From Candidatus Scatosoma sp. (lineage in GTDB: Bacteria > Bacillota > Clostridia > Christensenellales > Borkfalkiaceae): a stretch of DNA of 64,000 nucleotides. The notes beneath the pieces were generated by a model that had not been told where the DNA came from, searched no databases, and was given only the letters and a program-made list of their open reading frames with translations. Location of the stretch: assembly GCA_045632265.1 (NCBI GenBank), contig JAZQWG010000003.1, forward strand, positions 2,511 through 66,510, read 5' to 3'. Both the position numbers and the translations under genes were made by a program. Position 1 is the first letter of the stretch; every line of letters starts with the position of its first letter. Positions 35,601-50,766 of the stretch are shown piece by piece.

Positions 35601-38600
35601 GTTTTTGAACGCACCCGCATTGATAAGAGAGCAATCCGCAAAGTCGATAGATTGATCCACTTGCTTCACGCCGTTTACGTACGTTTCACGGTGTTTCGTG
35701 GATACAAAGTAAACCGCTTCAAGTGCGGAACAGTTTTCAAACGCACCTTCTTGGATTTGTACGACGGATGCGGGAATAACCACGATACGTACGTTGTCGT
35801 TATCCTTGAACGCATCTTCACCGATATACATAATGTTCATATCGGTAGGAATCCACAAAATTCCGTCGTCCTTATCCGTGCTGTACCCTACGCCGTTGTA
35901 CTTATTAAGCGTATAGTTGCTTACGTTAAATTCGTTTACGACGTTCAACGTGACGGTTGCCAAGTTCATCGTAGGCACGTTGCCACGATAAAGCTTCGCT
36001 TCCACCGCCGCCGTACCCTTCTTCAACGTCTTGACGTTGCCGTTTTGGTCCACCGTTGCAACGCTTTCGTCGTAGCTCTTCCAAACGACGGTGTAGCCCG
36101 TCATCGGATGATACCAAGGATCGGTGATAAGTTGCAACTGGAAGTTTTGTCCGGGGTTTACGTCCACTCTGCCTTCCGCTTTGGAAAGAGCTTCGCCCGA
36201 CGTCTTAATTACGCCAAGGGAAATGGACGGCTCGGAAAGGGTTTTCTTCTTATTAGAAACGTTGACGGTAATCTTTTGCACGCCGCCCTTTCTATTACTT
36301 ACCGAAATGGTTGCCGTACCTTCGGAAAGACCTACGATTTCGCCGTCTTTAACAGCCGCAACCGTCGGAGTATCCGACGTCCAAGAGAAGTTTGCAATGG
36401 ATGCGTTGCCGTCGTACACAAGTTTTACCTTGTGCGTGCCATAAATGTCAAGCGAGATGTTGTCTTCGCCGCTTGCCAAAGCAAAATCACCATTTTCAGG
36501 AAGTTGGCTGGAGTGCATCGTATCCAAATCGAGTTGATACAAACAGCTGTTTACTGCGTAGTCGTCGATTTGTACGTACAATTGATTGCCGTATTGTTCG
36601 TAAATGTCCGTAATGTCAATGGAAACGGTGGTCGTGCCGTTTTTCGTTTGGCTTCTTACGGGCGTTGCGTAATCGGTTGCAAGTTGCAACACGAGTTCGC
36701 CTTGAGAGTTCGTCTTGGGATAGCAAAGCATGATTGCTTGTGCATAGTGGTTATCATATACGTCCAAGTCAAGATAAATGCTTTGTTTTTCCTTACCGCT
36801 GCTGTCCTTAATCGTCTTATAACGAACGCGCGCATCTTGCAATACGGGAGCGTCGTAGTCAACGGTGAAGGTGAAGGAATATTCCCCTCTCATGTTGTTG
36901 GGGTTAGCCCCTTCGGGAAGGTTGGGGTCGTCCGCAAAAATCGTGTATTCGTCGGGGTCGTTCATGTAGAAGGTGAAGTCCATACGATATACGCCGTTTG
37001 CAAGCAAGCCGTATTCTTCGGGGTAAAGTTCCAACTCAACGTTGCCAGGCACTGCTTGACCGCCGCCTGCATACGCTTTACCAACACGGTTGATTTCCTT
37101 ATTCACGAACACAGCTTCGCCCGTTTCTTCGTTGATGAGCGAATAGGTGACCAAACGAGCGTTGCGCAACAAGCCTGCGTACACCGCTTTGATACCCGTC
37201 GTCGTGAGATAGTTTTCCGTATTGTCTTCGCCGTAGTAGTTGTTATAACGGGAAATAGAGTTATACTTTTCGTCCGTATAAACGGGGTCGTCATTTTCGT
37301 CTACAAGGTAAACGTAGCCGCCCATAGGCAAAATGTATTTTTCGTTGTAGTAGATGGAATAAGGTTGCGTTGCCCATACGCTTGCTTGTTTCTTTTCAGA
37401 ATCTTCCAAGCTGGGGTCAGCTTCGTCTTTCGCTACTTCGTACGCATCGTAATCGAGCATTGCCGAGCCTTCCCAGTCACCATGGAAACCAAGGAAAGGA
37501 ATGCTCAAATCGCATTGCGAAGCAGACGTAGATTTAAGTTGCAAGAAACCTTCGAGATACATACCGTTGGGGAAGTTTTGCTCAAAGTATTTCAATTCGT
37601 CGTTAGAAAGATTCAACTCTACGCTAATCGTCAAGGTTGCGCCTGCTTCCACCGTGATTTCATCGCCGCTCAATTTCGAGCCGTTTACGTACCATTCGGA
37701 AGCTACGTCGTCAAGCATGTACGCTTGTTCAGCCACGGCAAGGCCGCCCGATTCCACCGTTTCCGTGAAGAAGAGATGGCTGGTGGTAAAGCTCAATTCG
37801 TTCGTGCCGAAGTTGCTGAGTTTGAACGTAAGTCTATCTTTGGAAATAACGCCCGTCTTTTGAGGATCGTCGCCGATTTCAAGCTTGGGACGATAATCAC
37901 TGCCAGCGTTGTCCACCCAAAGGTATGCCGACGTGTTGTTTACTACGTTGTCAAGGCTACCCAAGCCCGCGCCTTGTTTTCTAGGCGAGTAAGGTCTGCC
38001 ACCCTTGTCGCGTACCGTCGTTGCCGTACTCATGATAAGTTGGTTTGCAAGGCGGTTGATAAGGACGGGGTTCACTTCCGTTCCTTCCGTTGCCAACGCG
38101 CGAAGCGCAGGGTTTGCTTTGATGTAGTTGCGGATAATCGCCATAACGCCTGCCATGTTGGGCGATGCCATGGACGTACCGCTTTGTTCGCCGTAGCCGC
38201 CAGGTACGGTGGACGTAATTTCGCCGCCGTGCGCCGTGATTTCAGGCTTCAATTTCAAATCGTGCGTAGGACCCCACGAAGAGAATTCGCTCATGAAAGG
38301 ACCTGCGGACGTGTCGCGACAAATTTTGATTTTACCTACGGGAAGGTTGGGCAAGTTGCCGTTTTGGTCACGAAGAGCATCGATAAGCGTTTTGCCCGAT
38401 TCCTTATCAATGGATACGGCGGGAATACGCATACTATCTTCAATTTCGCCAAGGTTCATGCGGATAAGACCTGCAACGTTGTTGTAAACGATGATTGCAT
38501 CTGCGCCCATACGTTTTGCCATTTGCACTTTTTCTTGGAAGGTGGATTCACCACGTTCTACAAGCGCAATGGACATGATGCCTTCCGCTCTATTTTTCTT

Positions 38601-40184
38601 AAATTCGTCGGTGATTGCTTTAGAGTAATGCCCCATCGCGCCCGTGCCGGGGATAACTACGTATTCGGCAATCATTTCCGTTTTGCTTTCGTCGCCAAGC
38701 ATTTGGTTTACGAAATCGTAAGGGTTGCCGTTTTCGTCACGGGATTCTTCAAAGAATACGAAGCTGTCGTCTTCGCCGTTTTGATTAAGACCGATCATGT
38801 ACGGGGATTCTTGACCGCTGATACTTGCAACGGAAAGCGCCGATGCAAACGTCGAGGGCGAACCTACCGTGCTGGAATCGGGGTTTTGTTTCAAGTTCGT
38901 ACCAAACACACCGCCGTAGCCCGAGCTGTAATCGTTGCTCGCTGCGCAAACAAGGCTGATGCCCTCGTCCGCAATCGCTTCGTAAACGGCGTTGAGCATT
39001 TCCCCTTCATCGTCGCCGTCGTCCGTCGTCGAGAAACCGCACGACGTACCAAGCGACATGTTGATAACGTCAACGCCAAGCATTACGCAGTCTTCCAAAG
39101 CTGCGATGATATTTTCCGCTTCCGCACCGCCAAGTTCGGTCGATTCCAAATCGTCGGTGAATACTTTACAGATAACGAGCTGCGCATCGGGAACTACCCC
39201 TCTAAACACTTCGTGAACGTCGTTGCCATCCTTGTCGGTGTAGCCGTTTTCATTATAACCGCCGATGATACCCGCTACGTGCGTGCCGTGGTTGGAATAG
39301 GAAGGATATACGTCGGGGTCGTTATCAGCATAGTCGTATGCGAAAGGAATTTTCGAGCTTACGTAAACGTCTTTCGTTTCCAAGCCGTTAGAACGCTTTT
39401 CAGACGTAAGGTTGTTGGCGTTCAACTTTTGCGTGACGGTGTCCGTATTCCATGCGGGATTTTCCGGTTGACGTTGGTACGCTTCGTGCGTGTAGTCCAA
39501 GCCCGTGTCAAGGATTGCAACAACCGTGCCTTCGCCGTAATCGTTTTCCGAGCCCGTCACGTCCGTAAACGACGTGGAATCGTAAATACCCGTCTTGTAC
39601 ACGCTCGTCATGTTAAATACTTCTTGCGTGGACGAAGTGGTAAACGTCTTAGGTTCAGAATACGCCGTCGTGATAACAACCGATTCTACGCCTTGCATTT
39701 TCTTGATTTGCGAAACGTATTTGGTGTTCACTTCAATCGCAACTGCGTTGAGAAGGGTTTCGTATCTGCCCTCTTCTTTGAAGGAAATGCCTTCTTGCGC
39801 CAAAGCACGAAGGAAAGCGTTTTGTTCGCTGCGGATAGACGAAAGGGTGTTTTGTCCCGTGAACGTATTAAGATAATCTTGAACGGTCGTCTTCGATGCT
39901 TCCGCTACGCTATCCCCTTCAAGCGTGACCATAACGGTACGCGTTTCGTACGTGGGTTTCTTATCCGTGTTTTTCAATACGGAATCGTTCAACTGACTTT
40001 CACGCAAGCTGGACGTATCTATCGTACCCGTCACGTCTTTGAACCCAACGCTTGCGCTGGTAGCGCTCGTCAAATTGAGTAGTTCGTTAGACGCACTCGA
40101 ACGAATTGCTTGTTCCACAACAAGCGTCGAAGCAAGACCAAGCGAAAGCGCTCCGCAAAGTATCCTTCTCCATTTTTTCTTCAT
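32625..40184 (-). CDS. Giant membrane-anchored surface protein: subtilisin-like S8 protease with PA insert, Big_2 domains, BspA-type leucine-rich repeats and Ig-like domain
   Basis: The likely start is MKKKWRR (ATG 40184), whereas the track starts at 40202. It has signal peptide LCGALSLGLASTLV. The catalytic motifs are VAILDTGLD (Asp about 232), HGTHVAG (His about 305) and SGTSMASPNMAG (Ser about 677), with a PA-like insert between His and Ser. Big_2-like domains lie at about 1250-1420. About 800 aa of IGxxAFxxCxxL repeats follow. The C-terminal anchor is LSALGVIGFAAALGFVVKKRKMK, with no LPXTG. Confidence 0.85.
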   Translation of the reverse strand: MKKKWRRILCGALSLGLASTLVVEQAIRSSASNELLNLTSATSASVGFKDVTGTIDTSSLRESQLNDSVLKNTDKKPTYETRTVMVTLEGDSVAEASKTTVQDYLNTFTGQNTLSSIRSEQNAFLRALAQEGISFKEEGRYETLLNAVAIEVNTKYVSQIKKMQGVESVVITTAYSEPKTFTTSSTQEVFNMTSVYKTGIYDSTSFTDVTGSENDYGEGTVVAILDTGLDYTHEAYQRQPENPAWNTDTVTQKLNANNLTSEKRSNGLETKDVYVSSKIPFAYDYADNDPDVYPSYSNHGTHVAGIIGGYNENGYTDKDGNDVHEVFRGVVPDAQLVICKVFTDDLESTELGGAEAENIIAALEDCVMLGVDVINMSLGTSCGFSTTDDGDDEGEMLNAVYEAIADEGISLVCAASNDYSSGYGGVFGTNLKQNPDSSTVGSPSTFASALSVASISGQESPYMIGLNQNGEDDSFVFFEESRDENGNPYDFVNQMLGDESKTEMIAEYVVIPGTGAMGHYSKAITDEFKKNRAEGIMSIALVERGESTFQEKVQMAKRMGADAIIVYNNVAGLIRMNLGEIEDSMRIPAVSIDKESGKTLIDALRDQNGNLPNLPVGKIKICRDTSAGPFMSEFSSWGPTHDLKLKPEITAHGGEITSTVPGGYGEQSGTSMASPNMAGVMAIIRNYIKANPALRALATEGTEVNPVLINRLANQLIMSTATTVRDKGGRPYSPRKQGAGLGSLDNVVNNTSAYLWVDNAGSDYRPKLEIGDDPQKTGVISKDRLTFKLSNFGTNELSFTTSHLFFTETVESGGLAVAEQAYMLDDVASEWYVNGSKLSGDEITVEAGATLTISVELNLSNDELKYFEQNFPNGMYLEGFLQLKSTSASQCDLSIPFLGFHGDWEGSAMLDYDAYEVAKDEADPSLEDSEKKQASVWATQPYSIYYNEKYILPMGGYVYLVDENDDPVYTDEKYNSISRYNNYYGEDNTENYLTTTGIKAVYAGLLRNARLVTYSLINEETGEAVFVNKEINRVGKAYAGGGQAVPGNVELELYPEEYGLLANGVYRMDFTFYMNDPDEYTIFADDPNLPEGANPNNMRGEYSFTFTVDYDAPVLQDARVRYKTIKDSSGKEKQSIYLDLDVYDNHYAQAIMLCYPKTNSQGELVLQLATDYATPVRSQTKNGTTTVSIDITDIYEQYGNQLYVQIDDYAVNSCLYQLDLDTMHSSQLPENGDFALASGEDNISLDIYGTHKVKLVYDGNASIANFSWTSDTPTVAAVKDGEIVGLSEGTATISVSNRKGGVQKITVNVSNKKKTLSEPSISLGVIKTSGEALSKAEGRVDVNPGQNFQLQLITDPWYHPMTGYTVVWKSYDESVATVDQNGNVKTLKKGTAAVEAKLYRGNVPTMNLATVTLNVVNEFNVSNYTLNKYNGVGYSTDKDDGILWIPTDMNIMYIGEDAFKDNDNVRIVVIPASVVQIQEGAFENCSALEAVYFVSTKHRETYVNGVKQVDQSIDFADCSLINAGAFKNCTNLKKIDLTNAKTITIAQDCFSGCTSLDEIVKMSNLGTLYHRAFKGCTSLSEIDLSGTFVMGNNVFEGCIGLEDIKTDRFTSIGREAFKNCTGLRGELVLNTPNIGEGAFAGCVNLGGVVFESPNGYSLEFDIGARAFENCGLNTRYGFSVDFGNEIIRTIGVDAFIGSGITEIAINDSFAFEALRLGGMSFNNITIKLSDNYAGDKYAEVNGAIYSQDMSKLLFVNTSLTGEFVVPASVTEIGSYAFANSKLTKVSFEDAGSLTKMGEGAFYGAKILDIDLSGTSITSLPAYAFYLATNLSSIVLPTSATKVEDFAFAYSGIREAFLPNVEYIGNDAFELCSMIEKVLTGNSKVEGAIVVSSKLTAIGDSAFFYCVSLESVELPNITEMGDYVFAYASKLQSATFGADSTAVGNFTFIYTALQSFTFAEGQMEAGTAMFGECSNLREVTLSPLTQKTIMVGGVETIIYNTVKEQAFSDCRRLTVVNNLDKVVYVGAKAFYNAGLTNLELLEAKEVGYGAFAVENEYGTKEAAYTAINMPKVEKIGAYAFLNGGETYVELPASVKEIGYGAFASSKNLKGFKVSQDNATFLTMDVDANGYGVLYRYIDKTAQTYEIVCYPAARVEATKTYKIADGTLYVQSAAFLELNSGALVGVVLPYSVNAIGDSAFFRSGIKTYTFESVQAPILETSYREEVTLWVEEVADEQAVAYYKGYYYTNFETYFYDFTQFGGKESTLEMKYPVNGVGYDSYVYATYFGTRAQTEIVMSDTTRDFITDLNGLPMDDIRAWATWDKTDEAKKTEVIDCAEMIKSLRTTYDLLIKDAGQKDFVADKETQLKAAEEAIRGAKSNFGIIAKIKGHTIDTSTFKKSYLVGEKFDITGMKITLKYDDNTTRVVSTENLTLLSEYNKELERTDSYVRIRYQDADNTYTFRVSIEVKEVEVEEPTVDVPTTDNEVVEQPEEKGCKNSLSALGVIGFAAALGFVVKKRKMK

Positions 40185-40430
40185 AAAGCCTCCCGACCGC
40201 AAAATGCGGCCTAATCAATCGTTTCTTTAGAGTAAAATCTGCCTTTTTCGTGCCTTTTTTGTCGTTTGCACAATTAGAGCATTATAACACATTATACCAT
40301 ATTATTTTATAACAAATCCAGCCGCCTTGTCAAGTATTTTCTCGTGCGTATGCGCATAATGTGAGTTTTATAATAAAAATTTTATTATAGCGTTTTTGCC
40401 AAATTATCCCCTTTCCCTAAAAACGAACGC

Positions 40431-40459
40431 TTGACTTTCCCTTGGGAAAGGGGTATAAT
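40431..40459 (+). promoter_or_regulatory. Consensus promoter with a 7-2-7 palindrome in the spacer
   Basis: TTGACT (40431-40436), 17 nt, TATAAT (40454-40459). CTTTCCC-TT-GGGAAAG spans 40435-40450, overlapping the last two bases of the -35 hexamer and most of the spacer. Confidence 0.6.
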
Positions 40460-40468
40460 AGGGGTAAT

Positions 40469-41950
40469 ATGGAAAACGTACAAACGGAAGAAACCGTACA
40501 AAACACACAAGAAAAACCCATATCCGGCGTTGAAACGAAATCGTTTATCGTTATCGTGGTGCTTCTTTCCCTTATCATTGCGCTAAGCGGAATCCTTTCG
40601 TATATTATTCCACAAGGGTATTACGCGCGCACCGAGCAGGGGTACATTCTCCCCGATTCGTTTATTCTCGGCGAAGTGGAAGGCATTGCTATTTGGCGTA
40701 TCATCACCGCCCCCTTCCGCGTTTACGCATCCGAGGATTCGCTGACGATTATTTTGATAAGCGTGTTCTTGCTTATCATGAGCGGCGTTTTCAACCTTAT
40801 GGACAAGACGGGCGGCATACGAATTTTTATCGGCAAAACGATGAAAAAGTTTGCTTCAAAAAGCAAACTCGTCGTATGTATCACAACCCTTATCTTTATG
40901 CTCTTTGGCAGCTTCTTTGGGTTGTTTGAAGAACTTGTCACCTTGCTTCCTATCGTTATCTTGTTCATGCTCTCGCTTGGGTACGATAGCATGACGGGGC
41001 TTGGCGTATGTATGATGGCGGCGTGCTTTGGTTTCTCGGCGGCAATCACCAACCCCTTCTCGGTGGGACTTATCCCCGAAATGGCGGCGGACAGCGGACT
41101 TTCCTTTAGCGTTATCGACGGGTTGTGGCTGCGTATCGTCTTCTTCTTTTGCGTATTCGCCGTCGTTTGCGGTTTCTTACTTTTACATATCCGTAAAATC
41201 AAGAAAAACCCGAAAAAATCACTCAGCTACGAAATCGACTTAAAGAAACGCGAATCGTTGCAAGCGCAACTTTCCGCAACCGACATCGACCCTGCAAAAG
41301 AACAACGTCTTTTCAAGGTTTTCGCCGTATTCTTCGCCGTGCAATTCACCCTTTTGGTGTTGATTGCAAGCGTGCGTGCGATTAGCGGCTACGCTATCCC
41401 TATCCTTGCCGTAAGCTTCCTTATCGGCGGCATTATTTGCGGGCTTCTCGTTTGCGAGAAAAAGAGCGAAGCCTTCCGTTATCTTGGCAAAGGCGCACTT
41501 TCTATGTTGCCCGCAGTCCTTTTGATTGCCCTTGCTTCTTCCGTAAAACTCGTTATGGTAGAAGGCGGCATTATGGACACGGTTATGTACTACGTCACCG
41601 AGTACTTGAAGGGGCGCAACCCCTATACGTGCGTGATTTTGTTGTATTTCCTTATCTTGGTTTTGCAACTTTTCATCGGCTCGGCAAGCGCAAAAATCTT
41701 CTTGATTATGCCCATCGTTTTGCCTATCGCCGCAAACCTTGGCATTTCCCCCACCGTCGTTGCACTCACCTATTGTATCGCCGACGGCTTCACCGATATG
41801 ATTTTGCCTACCAACCCCGTCCTTATCATCGGTCTTTCGATTGCGGGCGTTTCCTACGGCAAGTGGGTGAAATGGACGTGGCTTATGCAACTGTTCTTGT
41901 TCCTTTTCACCATTTTGGTCCTGCTCTTCGCCGTTGCAATCGGCTACTAA
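40469..41950 (+). CDS. YfcC/DcuC-like anaerobic carrier family transporter
   Basis: About 493 aa and polytopic. The N-terminal pattern SFIVIVVLLSLIIALSGILSYIIPQG...FNLMDKTGG is typical of the YfcC family. The ATG lies only 9 nt after the -10 box. The track TTG start at 40442 lies inside the promoter. Confidence 0.7.
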   Translation: MENVQTEETVQNTQEKPISGVETKSFIVIVVLLSLIIALSGILSYIIPQGYYARTEQGYILPDSFILGEVEGIAIWRIITAPFRVYASEDSLTIILISVFLLIMSGVFNLMDKTGGIRIFIGKTMKKFASKSKLVVCITTLIFMLFGSFFGLFEELVTLLPIVILFMLSLGYDSMTGLGVCMMAACFGFSAAITNPFSVGLIPEMAADSGLSFSVIDGLWLRIVFFFCVFAVVCGFLLLHIRKIKKNPKKSLSYEIDLKKRESLQAQLSATDIDPAKEQRLFKVFAVFFAVQFTLLVLIASVRAISGYAIPILAVSFLIGGIICGLLVCEKKSEAFRYLGKGALSMLPAVLLIALASSVKLVMVEGGIMDTVMYYVTEYLKGRNPYTCVILLYFLILVLQLFIGSASAKIFLIMPIVLPIAANLGISPTVVALTYCIADGFTDMILPTNPVLIIGLSIAGVSYGKWVKWTWLMQLFLFLFTILVLLFAVAIGY

Positions 41951-42065: not shown

Positions 42066-42347
42066 TTACAACAAATAATAAGGCATGTCGTCGCCAAAGC
42101 TTACTCTTTCAAAAGCGTTTTTCGTCGTTTTCTTGCAAGCGGGTTTCTTTGCGGGCGCCTTCTTTGCCGCAGGCTTTTTCGCCACTTTTGCTTCCGTTGC
42201 TGCTTCTACGGGCGCAACCATTTTTTCCATTACTTGCTCGTCAAGATTTGCAATCACGTTGCTGTTCTCCATGTCGGGTGCGCTCGTCTTTACGTTAGAA
42301 TACCCGTTGTTTTCCACTCTTTTAATTGCATTTTTACCGATTGGCAT
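42066..42347 (-). CDS. Small disordered Lys/Ala/Pro-rich protein, candidate ParA partner (McdB-like)
   Basis: 93 aa. It has a basic N-terminus MPIGKNAIKRV, a central AKVAKKPAAKKAPAKKPACKK and a C-terminus FGDDMPYYLL. Its start overlaps the parA-like stop by 14 nt. Confidence 0.55.
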   Translation of the reverse strand: MPIGKNAIKRVENNGYSNVKTSAPDMENSNVIANLDEQVMEKMVAPVEAATEAKVAKKPAAKKAPAKKPACKKTTKNAFERVSFGDDMPYYLL

Positions 42348-43125
42348 ACTCCATAATCTCCTTTGTTAAATTGATATATTCCACGGCGCTACGGCTCGTC
42401 TTTTTATACGCTACAACGGGCTTGCTGTTGTCTTGTGCCCATTCCACCGCGCTATCTACGCGGACGTAGTTGTCAAACAAGCGAGTGCCGTCCATTTCTT
42501 TGAGAATATCCATCGTTTGCTTGAAGTATTTTTTGCGTTCATCCGCTTTCGTAATCGCAATACCAAGCACTTCTAATCTGGGTGCAATGGTCTTTGCTTG
42601 ATTGCAAAACTCGAACATGTTCGCCAAGCCAAACAAACCCCAAGGGCTTGCTTCTACGGGGATAACCACGTAATCGGATGCACACATAACGTTCATTACC
42701 CAGCCGCCAAGCGTGGGGGGCGAATCAATGAGAATATAATCGTAATAGCCCGTTGCTTTTACCCTTTCCAAGCACTTTCTCAAAACGAATTCTCTTTGCC
42801 ATTTTGCGAACAAATCAAATTCGATACCACTCATAAGGGAAGAGGAAGGGATAATATCCAAGCCTTCAATGCCCGTATTTACGATGAAATCGGTTAAATC
42901 CTTTTCCATCTTAATTGCGGTGTGGATATTTTTGCCGCCTTGCGCAAACTCAAGCGCTTGTTCTTCATCGAAATAGGAAATGGTGAGATTGAGCTGCATA
43001 TCGCCGTCAATCATAAGCACCTTTTTCCCTTCTAACGCCATTGCGCAACCAACGTTGGAACAAGTGGTGGTTTTGCCGCTGCCGCCTTTGTTATTTGCAA
43101 AGGCAATTACTTTTGTTTTGCTCAT
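42334..43125 (-). CDS. ParA/MinD-family P-loop ATPase (McdA-like candidate)
   Basis: 263 aa with deviant Walker A FANNKGGSGKTT, then LMIDGDMQ and LIDSPP. AAGGAAG RBS. It starts 19 nt after the EutP/PduV-like stop. Confidence 0.85.
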   Translation of the reverse strand: MSKTKVIAFANNKGGSGKTTTCSNVGCAMALEGKKVLMIDGDMQLNLTISYFDEEQALEFAQGGKNIHTAIKMEKDLTDFIVNTGIEGLDIIPSSSLMSGIEFDLFAKWQREFVLRKCLERVKATGYYDYILIDSPPTLGGWVMNVMCASDYVVIPVEASPWGLFGLANMFEFCNQAKTIAPRLEVLGIAITKADERKKYFKQTMDILKEMDGTRLFDNYVRVDSAVEWAQDNSKPVVAYKKTSRSAVEYINLTKEIMEYANR

Positions 43126-43144
43126 ATTTATTCTTCCTTGTCTA

Positions 43145-43663
43145 TTACAACAGCCACGTATCCAAAGTTTTATTGACCGTCGTTGTTTCCTTTTCTTCCG
43201 TCTTTTTCTCTATTTTACGAACCTTTTTCTTGCCCGTTTCGTCGTTGAGAAAATCGACAAGTTCCTTTATCCCCTCACCCGTAATCGAACTGACGGGAAA
43301 CACCTTTTTACAGCCCGCCAACTTCAGCCATCTTACAACCCTTTCCACGTTGCCGTCCGGCTTATCAATGCCCGTGACAATGCCTATCGCTTCACGGTTG
43401 ACCATGCTCGTTAAACAAGGTGGGAAGATGGAATAGGGCTCGTTTGAAGAAAGCACCAAGCCCACCACGTCCGCTTCGTATGCGTATAAAGCGAGCGCAC
43501 CACTCGTTTCTCGTCTTTCGGTGTATTCCCCTGGGGTGTCGATAACGGTGTCCAAATAATTGACGTACTGCGTTTTGAAATATTTAATTTCTTCACCGCG
43601 CAAGGCTTGCGTGAGCGTCGTTTTGCCCGCACCTACCCTGCCAAATAACATAATTTTACGCAT
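43145..43663 (-). CDS. EutP/PduV-family small GTPase with a about 30-aa Lys/Glu-rich C-terminal tail
   Basis: 172 aa. It contains MRKIMLFGRVGAGKTTL...IDTPGEY. The tail is GKKKVRKIEKKTEEKETTTVNKTLDTWLL. Confidence 0.8.
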   Translation of the reverse strand: MRKIMLFGRVGAGKTTLTQALRGEEIKYFKTQYVNYLDTVIDTPGEYTERRETSGALALYAYEADVVGLVLSSNEPYSIFPPCLTSMVNREAIGIVTGIDKPDGNVERVVRWLKLAGCKKVFPVSSITGEGIKELVDFLNDETGKKKVRKIEKKTEEKETTTVNKTLDTWLL

Positions 43664-43691: not shown

Positions 43692-44051
43692 TTAGGTTTT
43701 CGTGAGTTCGCAACAAGTATAACCAAGCTTGTTGATGCAGTATTCTCTAATCGCCACGAACGCCGCTTCTACGGACGAAACGCTGCCCGTGATAATAAGC
43801 GTACCCGTGAATCTATCTACGAAGCCGATTTCCGCACCCGATGCCTTCATAGCAATATCCGCCGCGATAACGGCGCTTTCGTAAGGAATAACCGTCAATA
43901 CGCCGATAGCGCTTCTCGTGTAATCGGTTTGCGGATCCAAACCAAGCTTCGTGTACAGCGTTTCGCCAGGGTTGGCGATGATGTGGCAAAGCGTGATTTG
44001 CTTACCAGGCACGAATTCTTGTATAATTGTCATTTTATCTTTGAGTTCCAT
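43692..44051 (-). CDS. Circularly permuted BMC-H shell protein (PduU/EutS-like)
   Basis: 119 aa. It contains IIQEFVPGKQITLCHIIANP...GVLTVIPYESAVIAADIAMKASGAEIGFVDRFTGTLIITG. Confidence 0.8.
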   Translation of the reverse strand: MELKDKMTIIQEFVPGKQITLCHIIANPGETLYTKLGLDPQTDYTRSAIGVLTVIPYESAVIAADIAMKASGAEIGFVDRFTGTLIITGSVSSVEAAFVAIREYCINKLGYTCCELTKT

Positions 44052-44199
44052 ATATCACTCCTACGGATGATTTCCGTTTTTGTTTTTTTCATAACGCCTA
44101 GCGGCGTTGCATGCAAATACCTTAACACCGTAAACGGCGTAGATGCGAGCAAGACGAGAAGGGCGCGGATTTGCCCATCTACGATAAAGCTACACAAAA

Positions 44200-44245
44200 G
44201 CGATAACGAAAGATAGAAATACTCGCCCGCGGTGGCTCACCGCTT
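44200..44245 (-). repeat. 46-bp intercistronic repeat with hairpin, copy A (downstream of activase)
   Basis: 40/46 identical to 45099-45144. The hairpin GCGGTG-AGC-CACCGC (minus-strand sense) lies at 44229-44243. Confidence 0.85.
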
Positions 44246-44263
44246 GCGAAGTAAATACGTCGT

Positions 44264-45049
44264 TTAACCGCCGATTTGGCATTTAAGACCGCTTTCTTCC
44301 GCCACCGACAAAAGATATTCCATCTTTTCTTTGCTGGGCGGTTGGATGTCCTTTAACGAGTAGTTGCGATCTAATCCCGTGTACTTGTCTTGACCTAATC
44401 TATGATAGGGCAACAAGTGGTGTTCCTTTACACCAGGGAGCGAAGCCGCAAATTTTGCAATCGCGCGGATTTCTTCCGCCGTATCGTTGAACGTAGGCAC
44501 GACGGGGGTGCGGATAATCAATTCTACACCGCTTTCCGCTATCTTTTTGGCGTTTGCCAAAATCAATTCGTTGCCCGCCTTCGTGTATTGCTTGTGCTTT
44601 TCGGAATCCATGTGCTTAATATCCATTAAGTACAAGTCCAAATAGGGCAAAATTTCTTGGATTTTTTCAAATTCGGCATAGCCCGTGGATTCCACCGCCG
44701 TATGCAAACCGTTTTGCTTGCACGCACGGAGCAAGTCACGCGCGAAGTCCACTTGACCAAGAATTTCCCCGCCCGACAACGTCACGCCACCACCACTTCT
44801 ACGATAGTATTGTGCGTCCGCAAGAATTTCGGGCATAATTTCTTCCACCGTCACGTCCTTGCCGACGATTTTTTCTTTGCCGTTTTCCACCATCGTTTGG
44901 ATGGCGTATTCTTGCGATTCGGGGTTGCAACACCATGCGCAACGCATATAACAGCCTTTGAAGAATACGATGGTGCGGATTCCCCTTCCGTCATGGATGG
45001 AGAACCGCTGAATATTAAATATTCTTCCTTTCGTATCGTAAATGCTCAT
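44264..45049 (-). CDS. Glycyl-radical enzyme activating enzyme (radical SAM), short PflA-like form
   Basis: 261 aa. It has the CYMRCAWC radical SAM CxxxCxxC motif and SGGE. No Cys-rich ferredoxin-like insert follows the cluster motif. Confidence 0.85.
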   Translation of the reverse strand: MSIYDTKGRIFNIQRFSIHDGRGIRTIVFFKGCYMRCAWCCNPESQEYAIQTMVENGKEKIVGKDVTVEEIMPEILADAQYYRRSGGGVTLSGGEILGQVDFARDLLRACKQNGLHTAVESTGYAEFEKIQEILPYLDLYLMDIKHMDSEKHKQYTKAGNELILANAKKIAESGVELIIRTPVVPTFNDTAEEIRAIAKFAASLPGVKEHHLLPYHRLGQDKYTGLDRNYSLKDIQPPSKEKMEYLLSVAEESGLKCQIGG

Positions 45050-45098
45050 AGTGTTTTCCTTTTTAATTTATTTCTCTCTTCGACAACGCTTTGTTTAT

Positions 45099-45144
45099 GC
45101 GTTAGCGAAAGATAGAAAAGTTTGCCCGCGGTGGCTCACCGCTT
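45099..45144 (-). repeat. 46-bp intercistronic repeat with hairpin, copy B (abuts the GRE stop codon)
   Basis: See copy A. The hairpin lies at 45128-45142, immediately 3' of the TAA at 45143-45145. Confidence 0.85.
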
Positions 45145-47674
45145 AAAAGCCTTGTTCCGTTCTATTGATAATGTCGTCTTGCAACGAACGGGAAAGCGTT
45201 GTGAAGAGTGCGCTATAACCCGCAACGCGTACAACGAGCGTCTTATATTTTTCGGGGTTCTTTTGCGCATCCAAAAGTGTTTCACGGGTGACAACGTTGA
45301 ATTGCATGTGCATACCCTTTTGGTCGAAATACGAACGGATAAGCGCAACGAATTTCGTCAAGCCCGACATACCCGCAAGTGCGGAAGGATGGAATTTTTG
45401 GTTCAAAAGCGTACCGTTGCTTGCTACGCCTTGTTCGAGTTTTGCAACCGAGTTTGCCGTAGCCGTAGGACCTTTCACGTCTCTACCCGATGCAGGACCG
45501 ATACCGTCCGCAATAGGCGTAAACGCAAGTCTGCCGTCGGGCGTTGCGCCCGTTTGTCCGCCAAGGGGTACGTTTGCCGAAACGGGATACAAACCTGCTT
45601 GGAAGATACCGCCACGGTAGTTTTTATATTTTTCCACTTCTTTGGTGTAGCTGTTTGCAACGTCACGTGCGAACATATCCGCATCGTAGATGTCGTTGCC
45701 GTATTTAGGACACGTTTCGTCAATCAAACGCTTGATTTCACGATAGCGAGCCTTCTTTTCAGGGTCAATCGAGTTGCCCGTCGTCACTTCTTCGTATACC
45801 GTACGGATAACCGATTCCGTAATTTCTACACCGCTGTTTGCAAGCTGTTGTACGATGTCGTTCGTCACACGTTCTGCAGCTGCGCCTTGCAAGCCGTAGC
45901 CGAAGTTTGCGTTCATCGCTTCACGGTATTCCGCCATCGTCAATTTCTTTTCTTCAAACACGAGTTGCTTAATAGCAAGCAAGCCGTCCGTATTGTTGGC
46001 AATACCGAAGCCTTGGGGGCCCGTGAAGTTGTAAATTGCGCCGCCTTCTTGCAACGATTTACCACGAGCGATACAATCGTCAACCATACAAGACTGGAAG
46101 GGAAGCGGACAACGGGTTGCGTGCGCCGCATCAATAGCGTTGTTAGCGTTTACAAGCAATTTAATGAAATAGCTTTGTTGCGTTTTGTACGCTTCGTACA
46201 CTTCTTCAAACGTCTTCATGTCCGCTACGTCGCCCGTATCAGGACCGATTTTTACGCCCTTATCCATGCCGTTGGAGAATACGAGTTCCATAGGACGGCA
46301 CATATTGAAGAACGCCGCGTCGTGCCAACCGTCCGTTTTACCGCCCTTTTGCGGTTCTACGCAACCGATGATACAATAATCTCTTGCATCTTCCAAAGTA
46401 AGTCCCCTTGCCATAATGGAAGGAATCATAACTTCGTCGTTATAATATGCGGGCAAGCCCGTGCCAAGTCTTGTCAACGCCGCCGCTTTTACCAGCAACG
46501 ATTCGGGCGAGCCGTTCCATACACGAATGGAGATGGAAGGTTGGGGAAGGGGCACGTGCATAGATGCTTCCAAACACATGTACGACAAATCGTTCGTTGC
46601 GTCCATGCCGTGGATGTCTTGACCACCGACAATCAAGTTTTGGAACATACCATAACCTGCAAAGCCGTCCGCCGACACTGCATCGCGCACCTTGTTAATA
46701 TCGTTGAGTTTTACCCAAATACAATCGATGAGTTCTTGCGCTTGTTCTTTCGTAAGCTTGCCTTCGTCGATGTCTTTTTTATAGTAGGGATACATGTATT
46801 GATCGAAACGACCGGGAGAGATAGAGTGGCCGCTCGATTCCACTTGCAAAAGCATTTGTACAAACCAGAAGGATTGACAAGCTTCGTGGAAAGAAGTTGC
46901 AGGGAATTCGGGAACTCTTGCGCAGTTTGCGGAAATTTTTTCAAGTTCCGCTTTTCTATCTGCGTTCTTTTCCTTTTTCGCCATTTCACGAGCGAGCGCA
47001 GCGTATCTTCTTGCGTAGTGGATAACCGCTTCACAGCTTTCGATGACTGCGTACAAGAAGTTGCTTCTCGTCACGTAATCGCCGTCCGATACGTCCAACT
47101 TATCAAGCGCAGCTTGCGCTTCCGCCATAATCCCACGATACCCTTTTTTAAGTACCTTATCGTATTGCACGTTTACGTGGCCGATACCATTGTAGAAATA
47201 GTTGCCGGGCGTGAAAATGCCGTGTACGGTAAACGCTTCGTACGCTTCGGGCGCCATGTTCGCCTTTGCCAAATCGCTGCACGTTTTGCCCTTCCAGTAA
47301 GGGTACGCCCCACGCAAATCTTCCTTCGTTTTTTCGCTGATATAGAAGGGGTCTGCCGCACGGGTAGCCACCGTTTCAAATTCCGCTTCCAACCATTCGT
47401 AGGAATATTCGGGGAAAACTTGGCAACCACGAGGGCTAACCGTAGGCGCACCTACGATAAGTTCGTTATCACGGATAACGATAGGCAAGTTTTCCAAAAT
47501 ATGCGCAAAGCACGCACTACGACGACGGATAATAGGAAGGGATTCCGTCTGTTTATAACTCTCGGTAACGAGCAAGCCGCGCGCCGATTCGATTTCGGGC
47601 ATCTTTGCGTACAACGCATCGATAAGCTTGTCGATTCTCGCACTCTTTTCCATTACGAATTTAATGTTTTCCAT
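45143..47674 (-). CDS. Glycyl radical enzyme, probable B12-independent 1,2-propanediol dehydratase
   Basis: 843 aa. It has the C-terminal glycyl radical motif VVRVAGYSALF and active-site region IIGCVEPQ. The substrate is assigned from the rhamnose/fucose gene context only. Confidence 0.8.
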   Translation of the reverse strand: MENIKFVMEKSARIDKLIDALYAKMPEIESARGLLVTESYKQTESLPIIRRRSACFAHILENLPIVIRDNELIVGAPTVSPRGCQVFPEYSYEWLEAEFETVATRAADPFYISEKTKEDLRGAYPYWKGKTCSDLAKANMAPEAYEAFTVHGIFTPGNYFYNGIGHVNVQYDKVLKKGYRGIMAEAQAALDKLDVSDGDYVTRSNFLYAVIESCEAVIHYARRYAALAREMAKKEKNADRKAELEKISANCARVPEFPATSFHEACQSFWFVQMLLQVESSGHSISPGRFDQYMYPYYKKDIDEGKLTKEQAQELIDCIWVKLNDINKVRDAVSADGFAGYGMFQNLIVGGQDIHGMDATNDLSYMCLEASMHVPLPQPSISIRVWNGSPESLLVKAAALTRLGTGLPAYYNDEVMIPSIMARGLTLEDARDYCIIGCVEPQKGGKTDGWHDAAFFNMCRPMELVFSNGMDKGVKIGPDTGDVADMKTFEEVYEAYKTQQSYFIKLLVNANNAIDAAHATRCPLPFQSCMVDDCIARGKSLQEGGAIYNFTGPQGFGIANNTDGLLAIKQLVFEEKKLTMAEYREAMNANFGYGLQGAAAERVTNDIVQQLANSGVEITESVIRTVYEEVTTGNSIDPEKKARYREIKRLIDETCPKYGNDIYDADMFARDVANSYTKEVEKYKNYRGGIFQAGLYPVSANVPLGGQTGATPDGRLAFTPIADGIGPASGRDVKGPTATANSVAKLEQGVASNGTLLNQKFHPSALAGMSGLTKFVALIRSYFDQKGMHMQFNVVTRETLLDAQKNPEKYKTLVVRVAGYSALFTTLSRSLQDDIINRTEQGF

Positions 47675-47724
47675 ACTGTTTCCACCTTGTTATAGCATAG
47701 CTATAAAAAATAGCGATTAAATGA

Positions 47725-48270
47725 TTATAATTGATTCCAAAGTTCTTCGTGGGGCGCTGCAATGATTGCGTTGGAAGAAAGTTGCCCCGATTGTTTTGCG
47801 TAGTTAGAACCTGCTTCTACTGCCGCCGTCACGTCGCCGACTTCGCCCGTCAAAAGCACTACGCCCTTGCCGCCCATACCACGGGAAACACGCAAATCGA
47901 AAATGTCAACGCGCGCCGTCTTCACCGCAATATCCGCAGCCTTAATCGTCGTTGCCGCCGAAAACGTTTCAATCAAGCCAAGCGAGCCTTTTTTCACGCC
48001 TTGTTGCGTGCCGAAAAGAGCCGTAATAACTTGTTCGTCAATTCTACCCATGATGGACGAATCGATGACGTAGCTGCCAAACTTTTCCACAACGTGGTCA
48101 ACCGAAGCCGTCACGTTGGAAATCGAGCCCGTCAAAATGATTTCGTACTTGCCAGGGCAAGCAGGGTGCGCTGCAACCATTTCTACGCCTGCGCTCTTAA
48201 GCGCTGCGTCCGTTGCTTCAACCCCCTTGGGTACGCTCTTTAATTCAATAACACCAATCGACTTAAACAT
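47725..48270 (-). CDS. Tandem-domain BMC-T shell protein (PduT-like, putative 4Fe-4S site)
   Basis: 181 aa with two BMC domains. The Cys in HPACPGKY aligns with the cluster-ligand Cys of PduT. The C-terminus is PHEELWNQL. Confidence 0.8.
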   Translation of the reverse strand: MFKSIGVIELKSVPKGVEATDAALKSAGVEMVAAHPACPGKYEIILTGSISNVTASVDHVVEKFGSYVIDSSIMGRIDEQVITALFGTQQGVKKGSLGLIETFSAATTIKAADIAVKTARVDIFDLRVSRGMGGKGVVLLTGEVGDVTAAVEAGSNYAKQSGQLSSNAIIAAPHEELWNQL

Positions 48271-49592
48271 TATTCGCTATCCTTTTCAATGATTATTTTT
48301 ACACCTTCTTCTATCATCACTCTACCCGAGATAGAAGCATATTGCGGAAGGGAAAGTCCGTCGCCGCTTTCAGCGATTTTATCACCTTTTTGCACCTTGT
48401 CCCCGTCCTTTACAATCGCCACGCTAGGCGCGCCGATGTGTTGACGAAGATAGATTTCCGCTTTGTCAAAATCCGTTTGTTTGCCAACGAATTTTGCAAC
48501 TTTATCGTATTTTGCCACGCCGAGAATATGTTCCCAACGTTCGGAAGGCACCATGCGGTAATCTCTTTCAGGGGCAACTACGCTTTCTTCCTTCCCTACG
48601 TAGCGGAGCTTGTTTTTCGCAAGCAACGCTTTATATTCGTTGATAACTGCTTTGGGGGAAATGCCTTGGCAGCACGCAAGCGATTCGCATACGCCGCAAC
48701 CACAACAAAGGGTTGCCGAAAGCACCATTTGCGGCAAAATCGTTGCCGCACCCTTTGCCGTACGCACCATTTTATGCGGTTCTAAAGGATACCCAAGCAA
48801 GTGGCGAGGACACATGTCCGTACAACGGGTGCATTGACAGCAAGCCGTTTCCGCACGGGCAATGGACATCGCGCCGTTGATAAATTTGGAAGTGATAGCT
48901 TCGCAACTATTCGGCAAAATCAACAAGCCTTTCGTTGTCTTGGTGACAACCGCCGTTTCTACGTCAATCACTTTACCCATGGAAGGTCCACCGTCCAAAA
49001 CGGTGTGCCCTTCGGGCACGATAATATTATTCTTTTCAAAAAGTTGCCAAACGGGCGTACCTACGGGCACTTTTACCACGATAGGTTCGTTTACGTTCCC
49101 CGAAATCGTCAACCATTTTTCCGTAAGCGGCTCGCCTAATTTCACCGCTCTTGCGACGTTGTACATCGTTTCTACGTTGTACACGATTACGCCCGCCGTA
49201 ATAGGCAAGTTGCCCGCCTTTACGACACGCCCCGTCGCTTGATAAATCATCGCGATTTCGTCGCCCATCGGATAGACGTCAGGCAACGTACGCAACGTTA
49301 TTTTATCCGCCAACTTAGTGCCGTCCGTCAAGCGTAAACGCTTTGCCGTGTGATCTTTCACGCAAAGCAAGGCGCTTGGAATATTTGCAAATTCCAGCAC
49401 CGCTTTTATGCCTGCCAACACCGTTGACATTTCTTTATGTAAAAGCACGTAATCGGTGTAGAGCAACGGCTCGCATTCCGCACCGTTGATGACAAGCGTA
49501 TCCGCCCCGTCCGCGAGTTTTGCGTACGAGGGGAAGCCTGCGCCACCAGCGCCGACAATACCTGCTTCTTTCATAATTTCTTTCAAATTCAT
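48270..49592 (-). CDS. PduS/RnfC-like Fe-S flavoprotein
   Basis: 440 aa. It contains GIVGAGGAGFPSYAKL and two Cys clusters, CCQCTRCTDMCP and CCGCGVCESLACC. Its TAA overlaps the next ATG (TAATG). Confidence 0.75.
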   Translation of the reverse strand: MNLKEIMKEAGIVGAGGAGFPSYAKLADGADTLVINGAECEPLLYTDYVLLHKEMSTVLAGIKAVLEFANIPSALLCVKDHTAKRLRLTDGTKLADKITLRTLPDVYPMGDEIAMIYQATGRVVKAGNLPITAGVIVYNVETMYNVARAVKLGEPLTEKWLTISGNVNEPIVVKVPVGTPVWQLFEKNNIIVPEGHTVLDGGPSMGKVIDVETAVVTKTTKGLLILPNSCEAITSKFINGAMSIARAETACCQCTRCTDMCPRHLLGYPLEPHKMVRTAKGAATILPQMVLSATLCCGCGVCESLACCQGISPKAVINEYKALLAKNKLRYVGKEESVVAPERDYRMVPSERWEHILGVAKYDKVAKFVGKQTDFDKAEIYLRQHIGAPSVAIVKDGDKVQKGDKIAESGDGLSLPQYASISGRVMIEEGVKIIIEKDSE

Positions 49593-49688
49593 ATTTCAGC
49601 CTATTTTTCGCGTTTTTCACGCGTATTCTCTATACTTTCACCCCAAACGAACTTGGCGAAAAGAGAAATTTTGCCTTTTGGGGCTTGA

Positions 49689-49937
49689 TTAGTCTACGAT
49701 ACCTACGATAACTGCATCGCAAGGTGCGTTCGTGTTATGCAACGCAAGTCTTGCCGAGCTGCCAGTCGTCACGAGCACCGTTTCGCCGATACCTGCGCCA
49801 ACGCTGTCCACTGCAATGAGATATTTTTCGGTGAGTGCGTTGTTTTCGATAACTTGCACTTCCATAAATTTAGAACCAACGAGCGCTTCTTGTTTTCTTG
49901 TGGAAACTACGTTCCCTCTGATAATACCTTTTAACAC
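49689..49937 (-). CDS. BMC-P vertex protein (EutN/PduN/CcmL family)
   Basis: 82 aa. It contains GNVVSTRKQEALVGSKFMEVQ...DSVGAGIGETVLVTTGSSAR. Confidence 0.85.
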   Translation of the reverse strand: MLKGIIRGNVVSTRKQEALVGSKFMEVQVIENNALTEKYLIAVDSVGAGIGETVLVTTGSSARLALHNTNAPCDAVIVGIVD

Positions 49938-49941
49938 TTTA

Positions 49942-50601: not shown

Positions 50602-50661
50602 AACAAACCTTCCGTCTTTTTGTTGTTTTTTTCTCTCTTATCTTTGCGGCTTTTTGCCGCA

Positions 50662-50727: not shown

Positions 50728-50766
50728 ACGGGCTTTTTTACGACTTTTTTGCCGCTTTATGCGATT

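Follow-up and report, generated by a model that had tools for sequence, protein, structure and literature searches.

The stretch of DNA analyzed here (64,000 nucleotides of contig JAZQWG010000003.1 from a Candidatus Scatosoma sp., referred to below as the window) carries, at positions 42066–43663, three co-oriented genes on the minus strand, which were delimited from the list of six-frame open reading frames (ORFs) and from the raw sequence. In the order of transcription, these encode a P-loop protein of the PduV/EutP family with 172 amino acids (43145–43663), an ATPase of the ParA/MinD family with 263 amino acids (42334–43125), and a small protein of 93 amino acids that is predicted to be disordered (42066–42347). 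An earlier reading of the letters of this stretch, referred to here as the original prediction, had suggested that the three genes form a positioning system for a bacterial microcompartment (BMC). We designate the ATPase as ParA, a candidate McdA-like motor, and the small protein as the adaptor, a candidate McdB-like partner.

The three genes are tightly packed: parA starts 19 nucleotides past the pduV stop codon and is preceded by a Shine-Dalgarno sequence (AGGAAG, 43133–43138), and the ATG of the adaptor gene lies inside the 3' end of parA with an overlap of 14 nucleotides, its own Shine-Dalgarno sequence (AAGGAG) being found at 42358–42363. A terminator-like GC-rich hairpin with a T-run (42040 to 42023, minus strand) begins 25 nucleotides beyond the stop codon of the small ORF, and a second, bidirectional hairpin (42001 to 41973) lies downstream of the first; the next gene is convergent and encodes a DcuC-type transporter (40442–41950, plus strand). 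The gene coordinates, spacing, overlap, and terminator of the original prediction were all confirmed in the raw sequence, and so were the ribosome-binding sites.

These genes form the 3' end of a minus-strand operon of 17.5 kb, in which parA is the second-to-last gene. Immediately 5' of pduV lies a gene for a permuted BMC shell protein of the EutS/PduU type (43692–44051, minus strand), a possible docking partner, with a Pfam BMC domain at residues 48–107 and an NCBIfam EutS score of 112 bits, which is under the cut-off of 123. The remainder of the operon (44264–59540, minus strand) was assigned with Pfam and encodes, from its 5' end, a rhamnulokinase-like FGGY kinase, the L-rhamnose isomerase RhaA, acetate kinase, a class II aldolase, an aldehyde dehydrogenase (AldDH), and a Zn-dependent alcohol dehydrogenase (Zn-ADH), followed by four BMC-H proteins, PduL, EutN, PduS, a tandem BMC-T protein, a glycyl-radical enzyme (GRE), and the GRE activase, and then the PduU/EutS-type protein; a divergent DeoR regulator (59775–60512, plus strand) lies upstream. 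Type 5 of the glycyl-radical enzyme-associated microcompartments (GRM5) is defined by an aldolase, a lactaldehyde reductase, PduS and PduT, and an activase that lacks the ferredoxin insertion (PMC6325248). The operon contains, all co-oriented, the GRE and its activase (261 amino acids, with Radical_SAM and Fer4_12 as its only domains), the aldolase (PF00596), the Zn-ADH as lactaldehyde reductase (PF00107/PF08240), PduS, and a PduT-type BMC-T protein, together with AldDH, PduL, BMC-H, and BMC-P proteins; by gene content, the locus thus matches a GRM5 metabolosome operon (rhamnose/fucose to 1,2-propanediol).

Cotranscription of pduV, parA, and the adaptor gene with the upstream enzyme genes is likely. 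It should be noted that the activase and pduU genes are separated by a noncoding gap of 212 nucleotides (44052–44263, minus strand), which contains a GC-rich hairpin (GCGGTGagcCACCGC) followed by a T-rich stretch; the gap is essentially nil in some other species, and it may represent an internal attenuator or a promoter, with pduU, pduV, parA, and the adaptor gene forming a suboperon in this genome. Amphipathic termini that resemble encapsulation peptides were also observed on the minus strand, at the N-termini of PduL (MEISSAKIAEMVRKVLGEMGG; 49942–50601) and ADH (MDITSSQVESIVRKILGEMGG; 52149–53354), which are near-identical to each other, at the N-terminus of AldDH (AQIEKVIAQVIKNLGG; 53377–54834), and at the C-terminus of the aldolase (DLVEAITKKVLAALGK; 54893–55642).

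The original prediction had identified the ATPase through its KGGSGKTT motif, and its Pfam matches to AAA_31 (E = 6e-51, 173 bits with a cut-off of 27) and CbiA (E = 2e-18, 67 bits with a cut-off of 25.4) agree with this. The deviant Walker A motif reads NNKGGSGKTT, with the signature lysine K13 and K18 retained by 99% or more of 79 orthologues; the DGD motif and the Walker B motif DYILIDSPP align with those of the Helicobacter pylori Soj (HpSoj), and the catalytic motifs are invariant in the 79 orthologues. Judged by its sequence, ParA is a bona fide deviant-Walker-A ATPase. No NCBIfam equivalog was reached. The nearest solved structures are those of chromosomal Soj/ParA proteins, namely 6IUB from H. 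pylori (E = 1e-26 over the full length), 8RAY, 8JMJ, and 1WCV from Thermus thermophilus.

The same 79 orthologues show a conserved basic cluster in the C-terminal half of ParA (K193, R197, K198, K202, R222, K241, K242, and R245). In HpSoj, the residues in contact with DNA are K199, K227, K230, and K247 (PMC11229316); K199 aligns with the conserved K202 of ParA, and the K247 region with K241, K242, and R245. ATP-dependent binding of ParA to the nucleoid, that is to nonspecific DNA, is plausible because the basic residues at K199 and in the K247 region are conserved, although those at K227 and K230 are not. The loop of the H. pylori protein that contacts the ParB peptide (L50-G51-F52) aligns with Y51-F52-D53 of ParA, where F52, D53, and E54 are conserved. 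Two further candidate readings of ParA were rejected: a phage origin, for which a generic PHROG model of ParA was the sole phage-type match, and a fusion of ParA with the adaptor in P0125, a metagenomic protein of 357 amino acids, which instead contains an internal duplication of ParA residues ~40–135 and is most likely an assembly artefact.

The adaptor has a basic N-terminus (MPIGKNAIKRV), a low-complexity core (AKKPAAKKAPAKKPACKK), and an aromatic C-terminus (FGDDMPYYLL), all as originally described. The adaptor has 1021 homologues at 90% clustering, and a profile search gave 275 clusters at 50% identity; the 150 best matches listed all have 49–202 amino acids and nearly all align from residue 1. 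The first 31 residues form an N-terminal module (42255–42347, minus strand), which consists of the basic helix MPIGKNAIKRVE and NNGYSxVKTxAPDMENS, and across 150 representatives at 50% identity it is near-invariant, reading MPIGKN[AS][IL]KRVxNNGYSxVKTxAPDMENS. G4 and K5 are invariant and K9 and R10 near-invariant in the 80 genome loci described below. Over these 31 codons, 799 synonymous and 257 nonsynonymous codon differences were counted among 80 species, and at G15, S17, V19, A23, and A7 a single amino acid is kept although three or four codons are used for it. The adaptor is taken to be a real protein because of the 275 clusters, this signature of purifying selection, and its strong Shine-Dalgarno sequence, and by its codon pattern the small ORF represents a conserved family of translated proteins under purifying selection. 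By analogy, we propose residues 1–31 as the peptide that contacts ParA and stimulates its ATPase.

No Pfam or NCBIfam family matched the adaptor above threshold, and a profile of 30 diverse members found nothing in the PDB, including any McdB homologue, at E-values up to 10; the profile searches suggested in the original prediction thus matched ParA-family models for the ATPase and gave no McdB-family similarity for the small protein. The disorder that it had anticipated is seen in the AlphaFold2 model (calculated with an alignment of 27 sequences), which has no fold (mean pLDDT, the predicted local distance difference test, 58.7; pTM, the predicted template modeling score, 0.17) and short helices only, at residues 5–12 and 37–53. 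The variable linker (residues 32–76; 42120–42254, minus strand) has an acidic stretch followed by Lys/Ala/Pro repeats of the AKKPAAKK type; across the family it is 24–128 residues long, its sequence varies freely, and ~90% of it is made up of K, A, P, T, E, V, S, and Q. Of 126 representatives, 124 have a linker with a positive net charge and two have one with a charge of zero, and none is negative (median +8). The adaptor of the window has a pI of 9.4, and K and A make up 30% of its residues.

The linker leads into the C-terminal motif region (residues 77–93; 42069–42119, minus strand), which ends in FGDDMPYYLL in the window and across the family follows the logo [LVIF]-G-x-[DE]-[LM]-P-x-[YHWF]-L-L. 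No variation occurs at G(-9), P(-5), L(-2), or L(-1) among 127 representatives; position -3 is Y in 89 of these, H in 25, W in nine, and F in four, and position -7 is D or E in 102. An ending in [YHWF]LL is found in 135 of the 150 representatives. We propose, by analogy with other adaptors, that this tip docks on the shell. The protein has several of the features by which McdB-like proteins are recognized, being small, predicted to be disordered, and biased toward charged residues; a basic helix is also predicted at residues 5–12 (K5, K9, and R10), which would be the part that contacts the ATPase. It departs from the strict rule of a C-terminal Trp and agrees with the relaxed rule for the GRM and Pdu systems, an aromatic residue with an acidic residue nearby.

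To define how far the pair is linked to the microcompartment locus, one genome per GTDB species was scanned; 111 species had a relative, and the best 80 of these 111 were kept, all of them metagenome-assembled genomes (MAGs) labeled as Candidatus Scatosoma, Clostridia, Clostridiales, Christensenellaceae, or Eubacteriales. ParA is encoded directly upstream of the adaptor in 80 of 80 loci, at the same offset (-778 nucleotides, with the 14-nucleotide overlap) in 76. The number of loci with each of the other genes was 77 for PduV, 74 for PduU, 66 for the activase, 64 for GRE, 57 each for BMC-T, PduS, and BMC-H, and 51 for PduL. The missing genes appear to be due to contig ends, most incomplete loci having the adaptor gene within ~0.3–5 kb of the upstream end; likewise, the adjacency of pduU and pduV is kept in 74 of 80 loci, the remaining cases being contig ends. 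A scan of metagenomic contigs used a deliberately divergent query alignment, whose members are ~35% identical to its first sequence; here, ParA lies directly upstream of the adaptor in 39 of 40 loci and is 59–84% identical to the ParA of the window, the sole exception being a contig of 1.1 kb (L120) without a ParA match.

Taken together, ParA, the adaptor, and the GRM genes are linked in all 119 loci in which the upstream region could be scored, with the same GRM5-type genes wherever the contig extends, and the pair was never found outside the 3' end of a GRM operon in the 120 related loci from ~80 species. This is the outcome that the original prediction had called for from comparative genomics. 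A repeat search found no centromere-like arrays of direct or inverted repeats around the genes, and a tblastn search of 72,556 plasmids gave a best ParA match of 40% identity, the top matches listed being secondary replicons of 0.5–2.6 Mb; an origin of the pair from a plasmid or a partition system was rejected on these grounds. The setting is considered chromosomal because the window also holds aminoacyl-tRNA synthetase genes, a 6S RNA (4336–4516, plus strand; 60 bits with a gathering score of 46), and a tRNA (11432–11519, minus strand), and several of the related contigs are longer than 200 kb, reaching 317–444 kb. The findings that had been named in advance as speaking against a positioning module, namely occurrence on plasmids, proximity to parS-like repeats or replication genes, and lack of conservation of the small ORF, were not encountered.

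The third protein, PduV, matches PF10662 over residues 1–140 (E = 8e-51) and TIGR02528 with 146.4 bits (cut-off 138.35), and has the P-loop GRVGAGKTT; it belongs to the EutP/PduV family, with residues 141–172 lying outside the family model. Its label as a GTPase is uncertain because the NCBIfam EutP equivalog NF012011 is labeled as an ethanolamine utilization acetate kinase. The unusual tail noted in the original prediction comprises 32 residues (141–172; 43148–43243, minus strand), is Lys/Glu-rich, and consists of a disordered linker and a tip that ends in LDTWLL; in the AlphaFold2 model, residues 1–140 are folded (pTM 0.62), and residues 144–169 have a pLDDT below 50 and no secondary structure. 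Among the PduV-family matches listed, which are close relatives of the PduV of the window, the C-terminus takes the form [WYH]LL in 118 of the 120 closest clusters, and the linker is hypervariable. When 74 species with a complete pduV gene were sorted by tail, 40 had a tipped tail, 16 a basic tail without a tip, and 18 none. The tips follow the logo L-[DE]-T-[WHY]-L-L (WLL in 34 of the 40, HLL in three, YLL in two, and VLL in one); the untipped basic tails are Arg/Lys-rich (e.g., DDEDRARRL...KKK), and the tailless PduV proteins have 143–154 amino acids. The adaptor keeps its tip in all three classes and the ParA–adaptor pair is present throughout, and these comparisons indicate that the PduV tip is a lineage-specific addition. 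We regard the tipped tail as an optional addition and not as a part of the core module, because only about half of the species with the pair have it.

It had originally been stated that both proteins end in acidic-x-aromatic-Leu-Leu. This is exact for PduV, which reads D-T-W-L-L, whereas the adaptor reads D-M-P-Y-Y-L-L; the pattern common to both tips is a hydrophobic residue at -6, any two residues, and an aromatic residue at -3 followed by two leucines; the acidic residue occupies -5 in PduV and -7 in the adaptor. Such endings are otherwise rare: among the 323 ORFs of the window with at least 50 amino acids, only two end in [WYHF]LL, the adaptor and PduV, and in the 80 loci, where 4014 six-frame ORFs have 70 or more amino acids, 120 of these end in [WYH]LL, all but four of which are the adaptor or PduV (a background of four in ~3900 other ORFs). 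Because [WYH]LL is almost exclusive to these two proteins, the shared tip is considered to be real and under selection; the suggestion of a shared tip therefore stands, restricted to the 40 of 74 species in which PduV carries one. No covariation between the tip residues of PduV and the adaptor is visible in these species, and those with a PduV ending in HLL or YLL keep an adaptor ending in YLL.

We favor, as a probable though by no means secure interpretation drawn by analogy, that ParA and the adaptor constitute an McdAB-like, ParA-driven, nucleoid-based positioning module dedicated to the GRM5 metabolosome. In such a system, ParA–ATP dimers would coat the nucleoid through the conserved basic surface, and the disordered adaptor would sit on the exterior of the compartment, held by its C-terminal G-x-[DE]-[LM]-P-x-[YHW]-L-L tip. 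The flexible, polycationic linker would present the basic N-terminal helix (MPIGKNAIKRV) to nucleoid-bound ParA, where the helix would stimulate ATP hydrolysis and lead to the release of ParA; the local depletion of ParA would then space the compartments along the nucleoid by a Brownian ratchet. Spacing of this kind would prevent the compartments from aggregating and secure their inheritance, the role that McdAB has with carboxysomes. PduV has its own disordered tail with a look-alike L-[DE]-T-W-L-L tip in roughly half of the species, and this tail would probably attach to the same surface site as the tip of the adaptor. An interaction of PduU with PduV has been reported from a two-hybrid assay in Salmonella (PMC4315436), and because of this the adjacent PduU/EutS-type shell protein is an obvious candidate for binding the tips. 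More tentatively, and with more doubt than confidence on our part, [LM]-x-x-[WYH]-L-L could be a portable peptide that docks on the outer face of the metabolosome shell, perhaps on the PduU/EutS-type hexamer, and is used by two nucleotide-binding systems; the adaptor would carry the tip permanently, and PduV may, in part of the clade, have gained it by way of a disordered tail.

Several observations weigh against this interpretation. The polarity of the adaptor, with its N-terminus toward ParA and its C-terminus toward the shell, is assumed by analogy and could be reversed, and its near-invariant N-terminus of 31 residues is longer than a simple ATPase-stimulating peptide requires. The adaptor has no detectable homology to a known McdB or to a solved structure, and it has Tyr or His in place of the Trp that is invariant in carboxysome McdBs; the dissimilarity in sequence carries little weight because the McdBs themselves are only ~15% identical to each other. 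The cyanobacterial McdA-like structures 6NON/6NOO match ParA more weakly than the Soj structures (E = 3e-12, residues 4–180 only), and two of the four DNA-contacting lysines of HpSoj are not kept, K227 being replaced by S225 and K230 by E228. The family is confined to one clade (Candidatus Scatosoma, in MAGs of Christensenellales-like Clostridia), and the linkage is not phylogenetically independent; part of it could reflect shared ancestry, because synteny is conserved within this clade. Finally, no experimental evidence for an McdAB-like system outside carboxysomes was found in the literature searched. Comparison with 6NON/6NOO did not establish orthology of ParA to the characterized alpha- or beta-McdA proteins, and recruitment of ParA from a Soj-like ancestor, independent of the known McdAs, appears more likely from these matches than common descent with them. 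The positioning system of the original prediction is thus supported in part, namely in its ParA, its conserved disordered partner, and its linkage to the GRM operon; the PduV tip is optional within it, and the idea itself had already been published.

Because the positive charge of the linker is conserved and its sequence is not, a passive tether to the nucleoid was also considered, in which the H1-like linker of the adaptor (and maybe the basic PduV tails) would bind DNA in the manner of PhaM and PhaF, and the compartments would segregate with the chromosome. The AKKPAAKK-type linker keeps its charge despite free variation in length and sequence, and basic, untipped PduV tails occur in 16 of the 74 species; polyhydroxyalkanoate (PHA) granules are attached to the nucleoid, and their segregation is ensured, by PAKKA motifs in PhaM and by an H1-like tail in PhaF (PMC9049629). 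The adaptor also has a weak match to the histone-H1-like HC2 model, but this is far under the threshold (19 bits, with a cut-off of 40), and known McdBs are likewise highly charged and of low complexity, yet DNA binding is not invoked for them. A dedicated parA gene that is more conserved than the adaptor gene, with a conserved overlap of 14 nucleotides that suggests translational coupling, points instead to an active ATPase cycle. We consider a tether of this type unlikely; it can coexist with ParA-driven positioning, with ParA then only modulating or releasing the tether.

The adaptor might alternatively act as an assembly or condensate factor that scaffolds shell closure, sets the number or size of the compartments, or blocks their fusion, with ParA and PduV as nucleotide-dependent regulators and no transport along the nucleoid. 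McdB proteins form condensates that are tuned by the C-terminal aromatic residue, and the cationic, low-complexity adaptor with its terminal aromatic residue would suit cation–pi interactions; the position of the genes at the end of a structural operon fits as well. In every case studied, however, ParA proteins with the signature lysine, the deviant Walker A motif, and a Soj-like surface are machines for positioning on the nucleoid or membrane, and the prevention of aggregation is itself an McdAB phenotype, so that this explanation, which we hold to be rather improbable, differs mainly in emphasis.

Anchoring at the membrane or cell pole is very unlikely. Here, the polybasic stretch and the aromatic-Leu-Leu tip of the adaptor and PduV would serve as a weak membrane-targeting element that tethers the compartments or ParA to the cytoplasmic membrane, and the N-terminal module of the adaptor would be the end that binds the shell or ParA. 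Both tails indeed have a short hydrophobic or aromatic tip at the end of a disordered segment that is cationic, and MinD-type relatives of ParA work on membranes. Against this, the tip has just three to four hydrophobic residues and no amphipathic helix, AlphaFold2 shows a helical turn of three residues at the adaptor tip and an unstructured PduV tail, the invariant Gly and Pro of G-x-[DE]-[LM]-P-x-Ar-L-L (Ar, aromatic) point to a specific contact of peptide and protein, and ParA keeps Soj-like basic residues and has no C-terminal membrane-targeting helix.

An ordinary DNA-partition cassette that serves the chromosome or an integrated element, with a type Ib ParA and a small centromere-binding protein like ParB or ParG merely located beside the BMC operon, would account for the chromosomal Soj/ParA proteins as the best structural relatives, the PHROG match (ParA-like partition protein, E = 6e-64), the sizes of both proteins, which resemble those of type Ib pairs, and the ParB-like IGK motif at the adaptor's N-terminus, but we give it hardly any credence, as it is largely refuted by the housekeeping chromosomal surroundings, the strict GRM linkage, the low plasmid identity, the lack of nearby repeat arrays, the 19 nucleotides between pduV and parA that leave no room for a promoter or centromere, and an adaptor in which Pfam, NCBIfam, and PDB searches and AlphaFold2 gave no ribbon-helix-helix, helix-turn-helix (HTH), ParB, or any other folded domain.

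Some further features of the window were noted. A predicted surface protein of 2525 amino acids (32625–40202, minus strand) has the subtilase motifs DTGLD, HGTHVAG, and GTSMASP, many repeats of the leucine-rich type, and a C-terminal hydrophobic anchor, and the opposite strand has a stop-free frame of 2452 codons. Very long stop-free ORFs on the plus strand also mirror the genes for GRE (45122–47695), AckA and RhaA (55687–58116), ADH (52182–53384), and the kinase (58140–59567); such antisense ORFs are probably an artefact of the codon usage of this genome and not genes, and they would mislead naive ORF callers. A domain of the TMEM164 family, which is best known from eukaryotes, occurs in two proteins (29826–32054 and 62306–63133, both minus strand), in one of them fused to the ATPase domain of an ABC transporter.

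The spacing and inheritance of the Pdu, Eut, and GRM compartments are of interest because a positioning system has been demonstrated only for carboxysomes (McdAB); the positioning of Pdu compartments in Salmonella is influenced neither by McdAB from a heterologous source nor by the ParA or MinD of the host itself. The concept of McdAB-like systems for metabolosomes has been in print since 2021 and is not original here. This and the fact that the hosts are uncultured MAG lineages temper the value of the present family. What we add is its extent and limits, the strict linkage to the locus, the evidence for purifying selection, the exact C-terminal logo, the invariant N-terminal module of 31 residues with its ParB-like IGK motif, the conserved cationic linker, and the look-alike tip of PduV. 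Always found in the operon, with short mutable motifs at both ends of the adaptor and the PduV look-alike tip, the family is an unusually clean candidate for metabolosomes. If the interpretation holds, it would carry the Brownian-ratchet principle of ParA over to the catabolic organelles of abundant gut anaerobes, and, because sequence homology is lacking and the ATPase is Soj-derived, would imply convergent evolution of McdB-like adaptors. It would also offer engineers a peptide with which to tag the GRM shell on its outer surface. If the tips are docking peptides, they would define the first surface-display tag for metabolosomes and would physically link PduV, a protein associated with compartment dynamics that has long been enigmatic, to ParA positioning on the same organelle surface.

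The closest characterized parallel is the McdA/McdB system of the alpha-carboxysome in Halothiobacillus neapolitanus, whose McdB is of the alpha type 1. In both cases, a ParA with the signature lysine is encoded in a BMC operon with a small partner gene directly downstream, and the partner is predicted to be nearly all disordered save for a short basic N-terminal helix (PMC12139897), its body being charged and of low complexity and its C-terminus having an aromatic motif close to acidic residues. The McdB helix has 17 residues, of which K7 is critical, and docks at the interface of the McdA dimer (PMC12139897). The present system differs in its cargo, a catabolic glycyl-radical metabolosome of an anaerobic gut Firmicute, and in its tip, with Tyr, His, or Trp at -3 and an invariant Leu-Leu instead of the invariant Trp. 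In addition, its 31-residue N-terminal module is far more conserved than the McdBs, which average ~15% identity, the partners have no detectable homology, and its ParA resembles Soj more closely than it does the solved McdA-like protein.

ParA has been listed among the ancillary genes of BMC loci (Axen 2014), and section 2.9, with Figure 8f, of MacCready 2021 (PMC8359340) describes McdA- and McdB-like sequences in or beside four types of noncarboxysome BMC loci, the McdB-like proteins having a Tyr within their last four residues; a 2021 mBio review restates the presence of McdAB-like genes at such loci (PMC8262871). In Figure 4 of Basalla 2024 (PMC11321042), the C-termini of McdB-like proteins of PDU and GRM loci have Y or F within the last five residues with acidic residues nearby, and the same paper reports that Tyr can replace Trp in real McdBs. 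As described in these sections, the published GRM/PDU genes carry the same claim as ours at the same level of evidence, namely gene neighborhood, a small partner, and a terminal aromatic residue, and the adaptor family may well be one of these published examples.

Soj/ParA and Spo0J/ParB of Bacillus subtilis, T. thermophilus, and H. pylori include the best relatives of the ATPase, with K199 of HpSoj corresponding to K202. The adaptor starts with [LI]-G-[KR], comparable to the LG(K/R)G peptide of ParB, a likeness that is short and extends over about four residues. The corresponding Spo0J sequence is MAKGLGKGINAL. The N-terminal L-G-[KR]-G peptide of ParB acts on ParA, with K3/K7 of the B. subtilis Spo0J, K5/R9 of the H. 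pylori ParB, and R10 of the T. thermophilus Spo0J as key residues (PMC11229316). We infer from this likeness that the adaptor might mimic the ParB peptide toward a Soj-derived ATPase. The identity of the ParA proteins is only ~33–40% and K227/K230 of HpSoj are not kept; unlike in the Soj/ParB systems, the partner lacks a ParB or HTH domain, parS is absent, and the gene does not lie at the origin region.

PhaM of Cupriavidus necator and PhaF of Pseudomonas putida, which distribute PHA granules equally to the daughter cells (PMC9049629), share with the adaptor a disordered, Lys/Ala/Pro-rich, H1-like segment on a protein that binds an organelle or, for the adaptor, is proposed to do so; unlike the adaptor, they have no ParA partner, and a phasin domain forms their granule-binding end. 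The PduV of Salmonella (Parsons 2010; Jorda 2015) is a fellow member of the EutP/PduV family and is likewise encoded beside pduU. It is thought to lie outside the shell, bound to the beta-barrel of PduU, and to influence compartment dynamics (PMC4315436, PMC8262871); its targeting runs through the first 42 residues at the N-terminus, and no terminal extension was modeled (PMC4315436). The PduV described here differs in that, in part of the clade, it has a disordered C-terminal tail of ~30 residues that ends in a conserved tip. To our knowledge, the Salmonella protein has no comparable C-terminal tail. Compared with all of these systems, the family falls outside the characterized McdA/McdB proteins when membership is defined by homology; its features place it among McdB-like proteins, and it is probably of independent, Soj-like origin.

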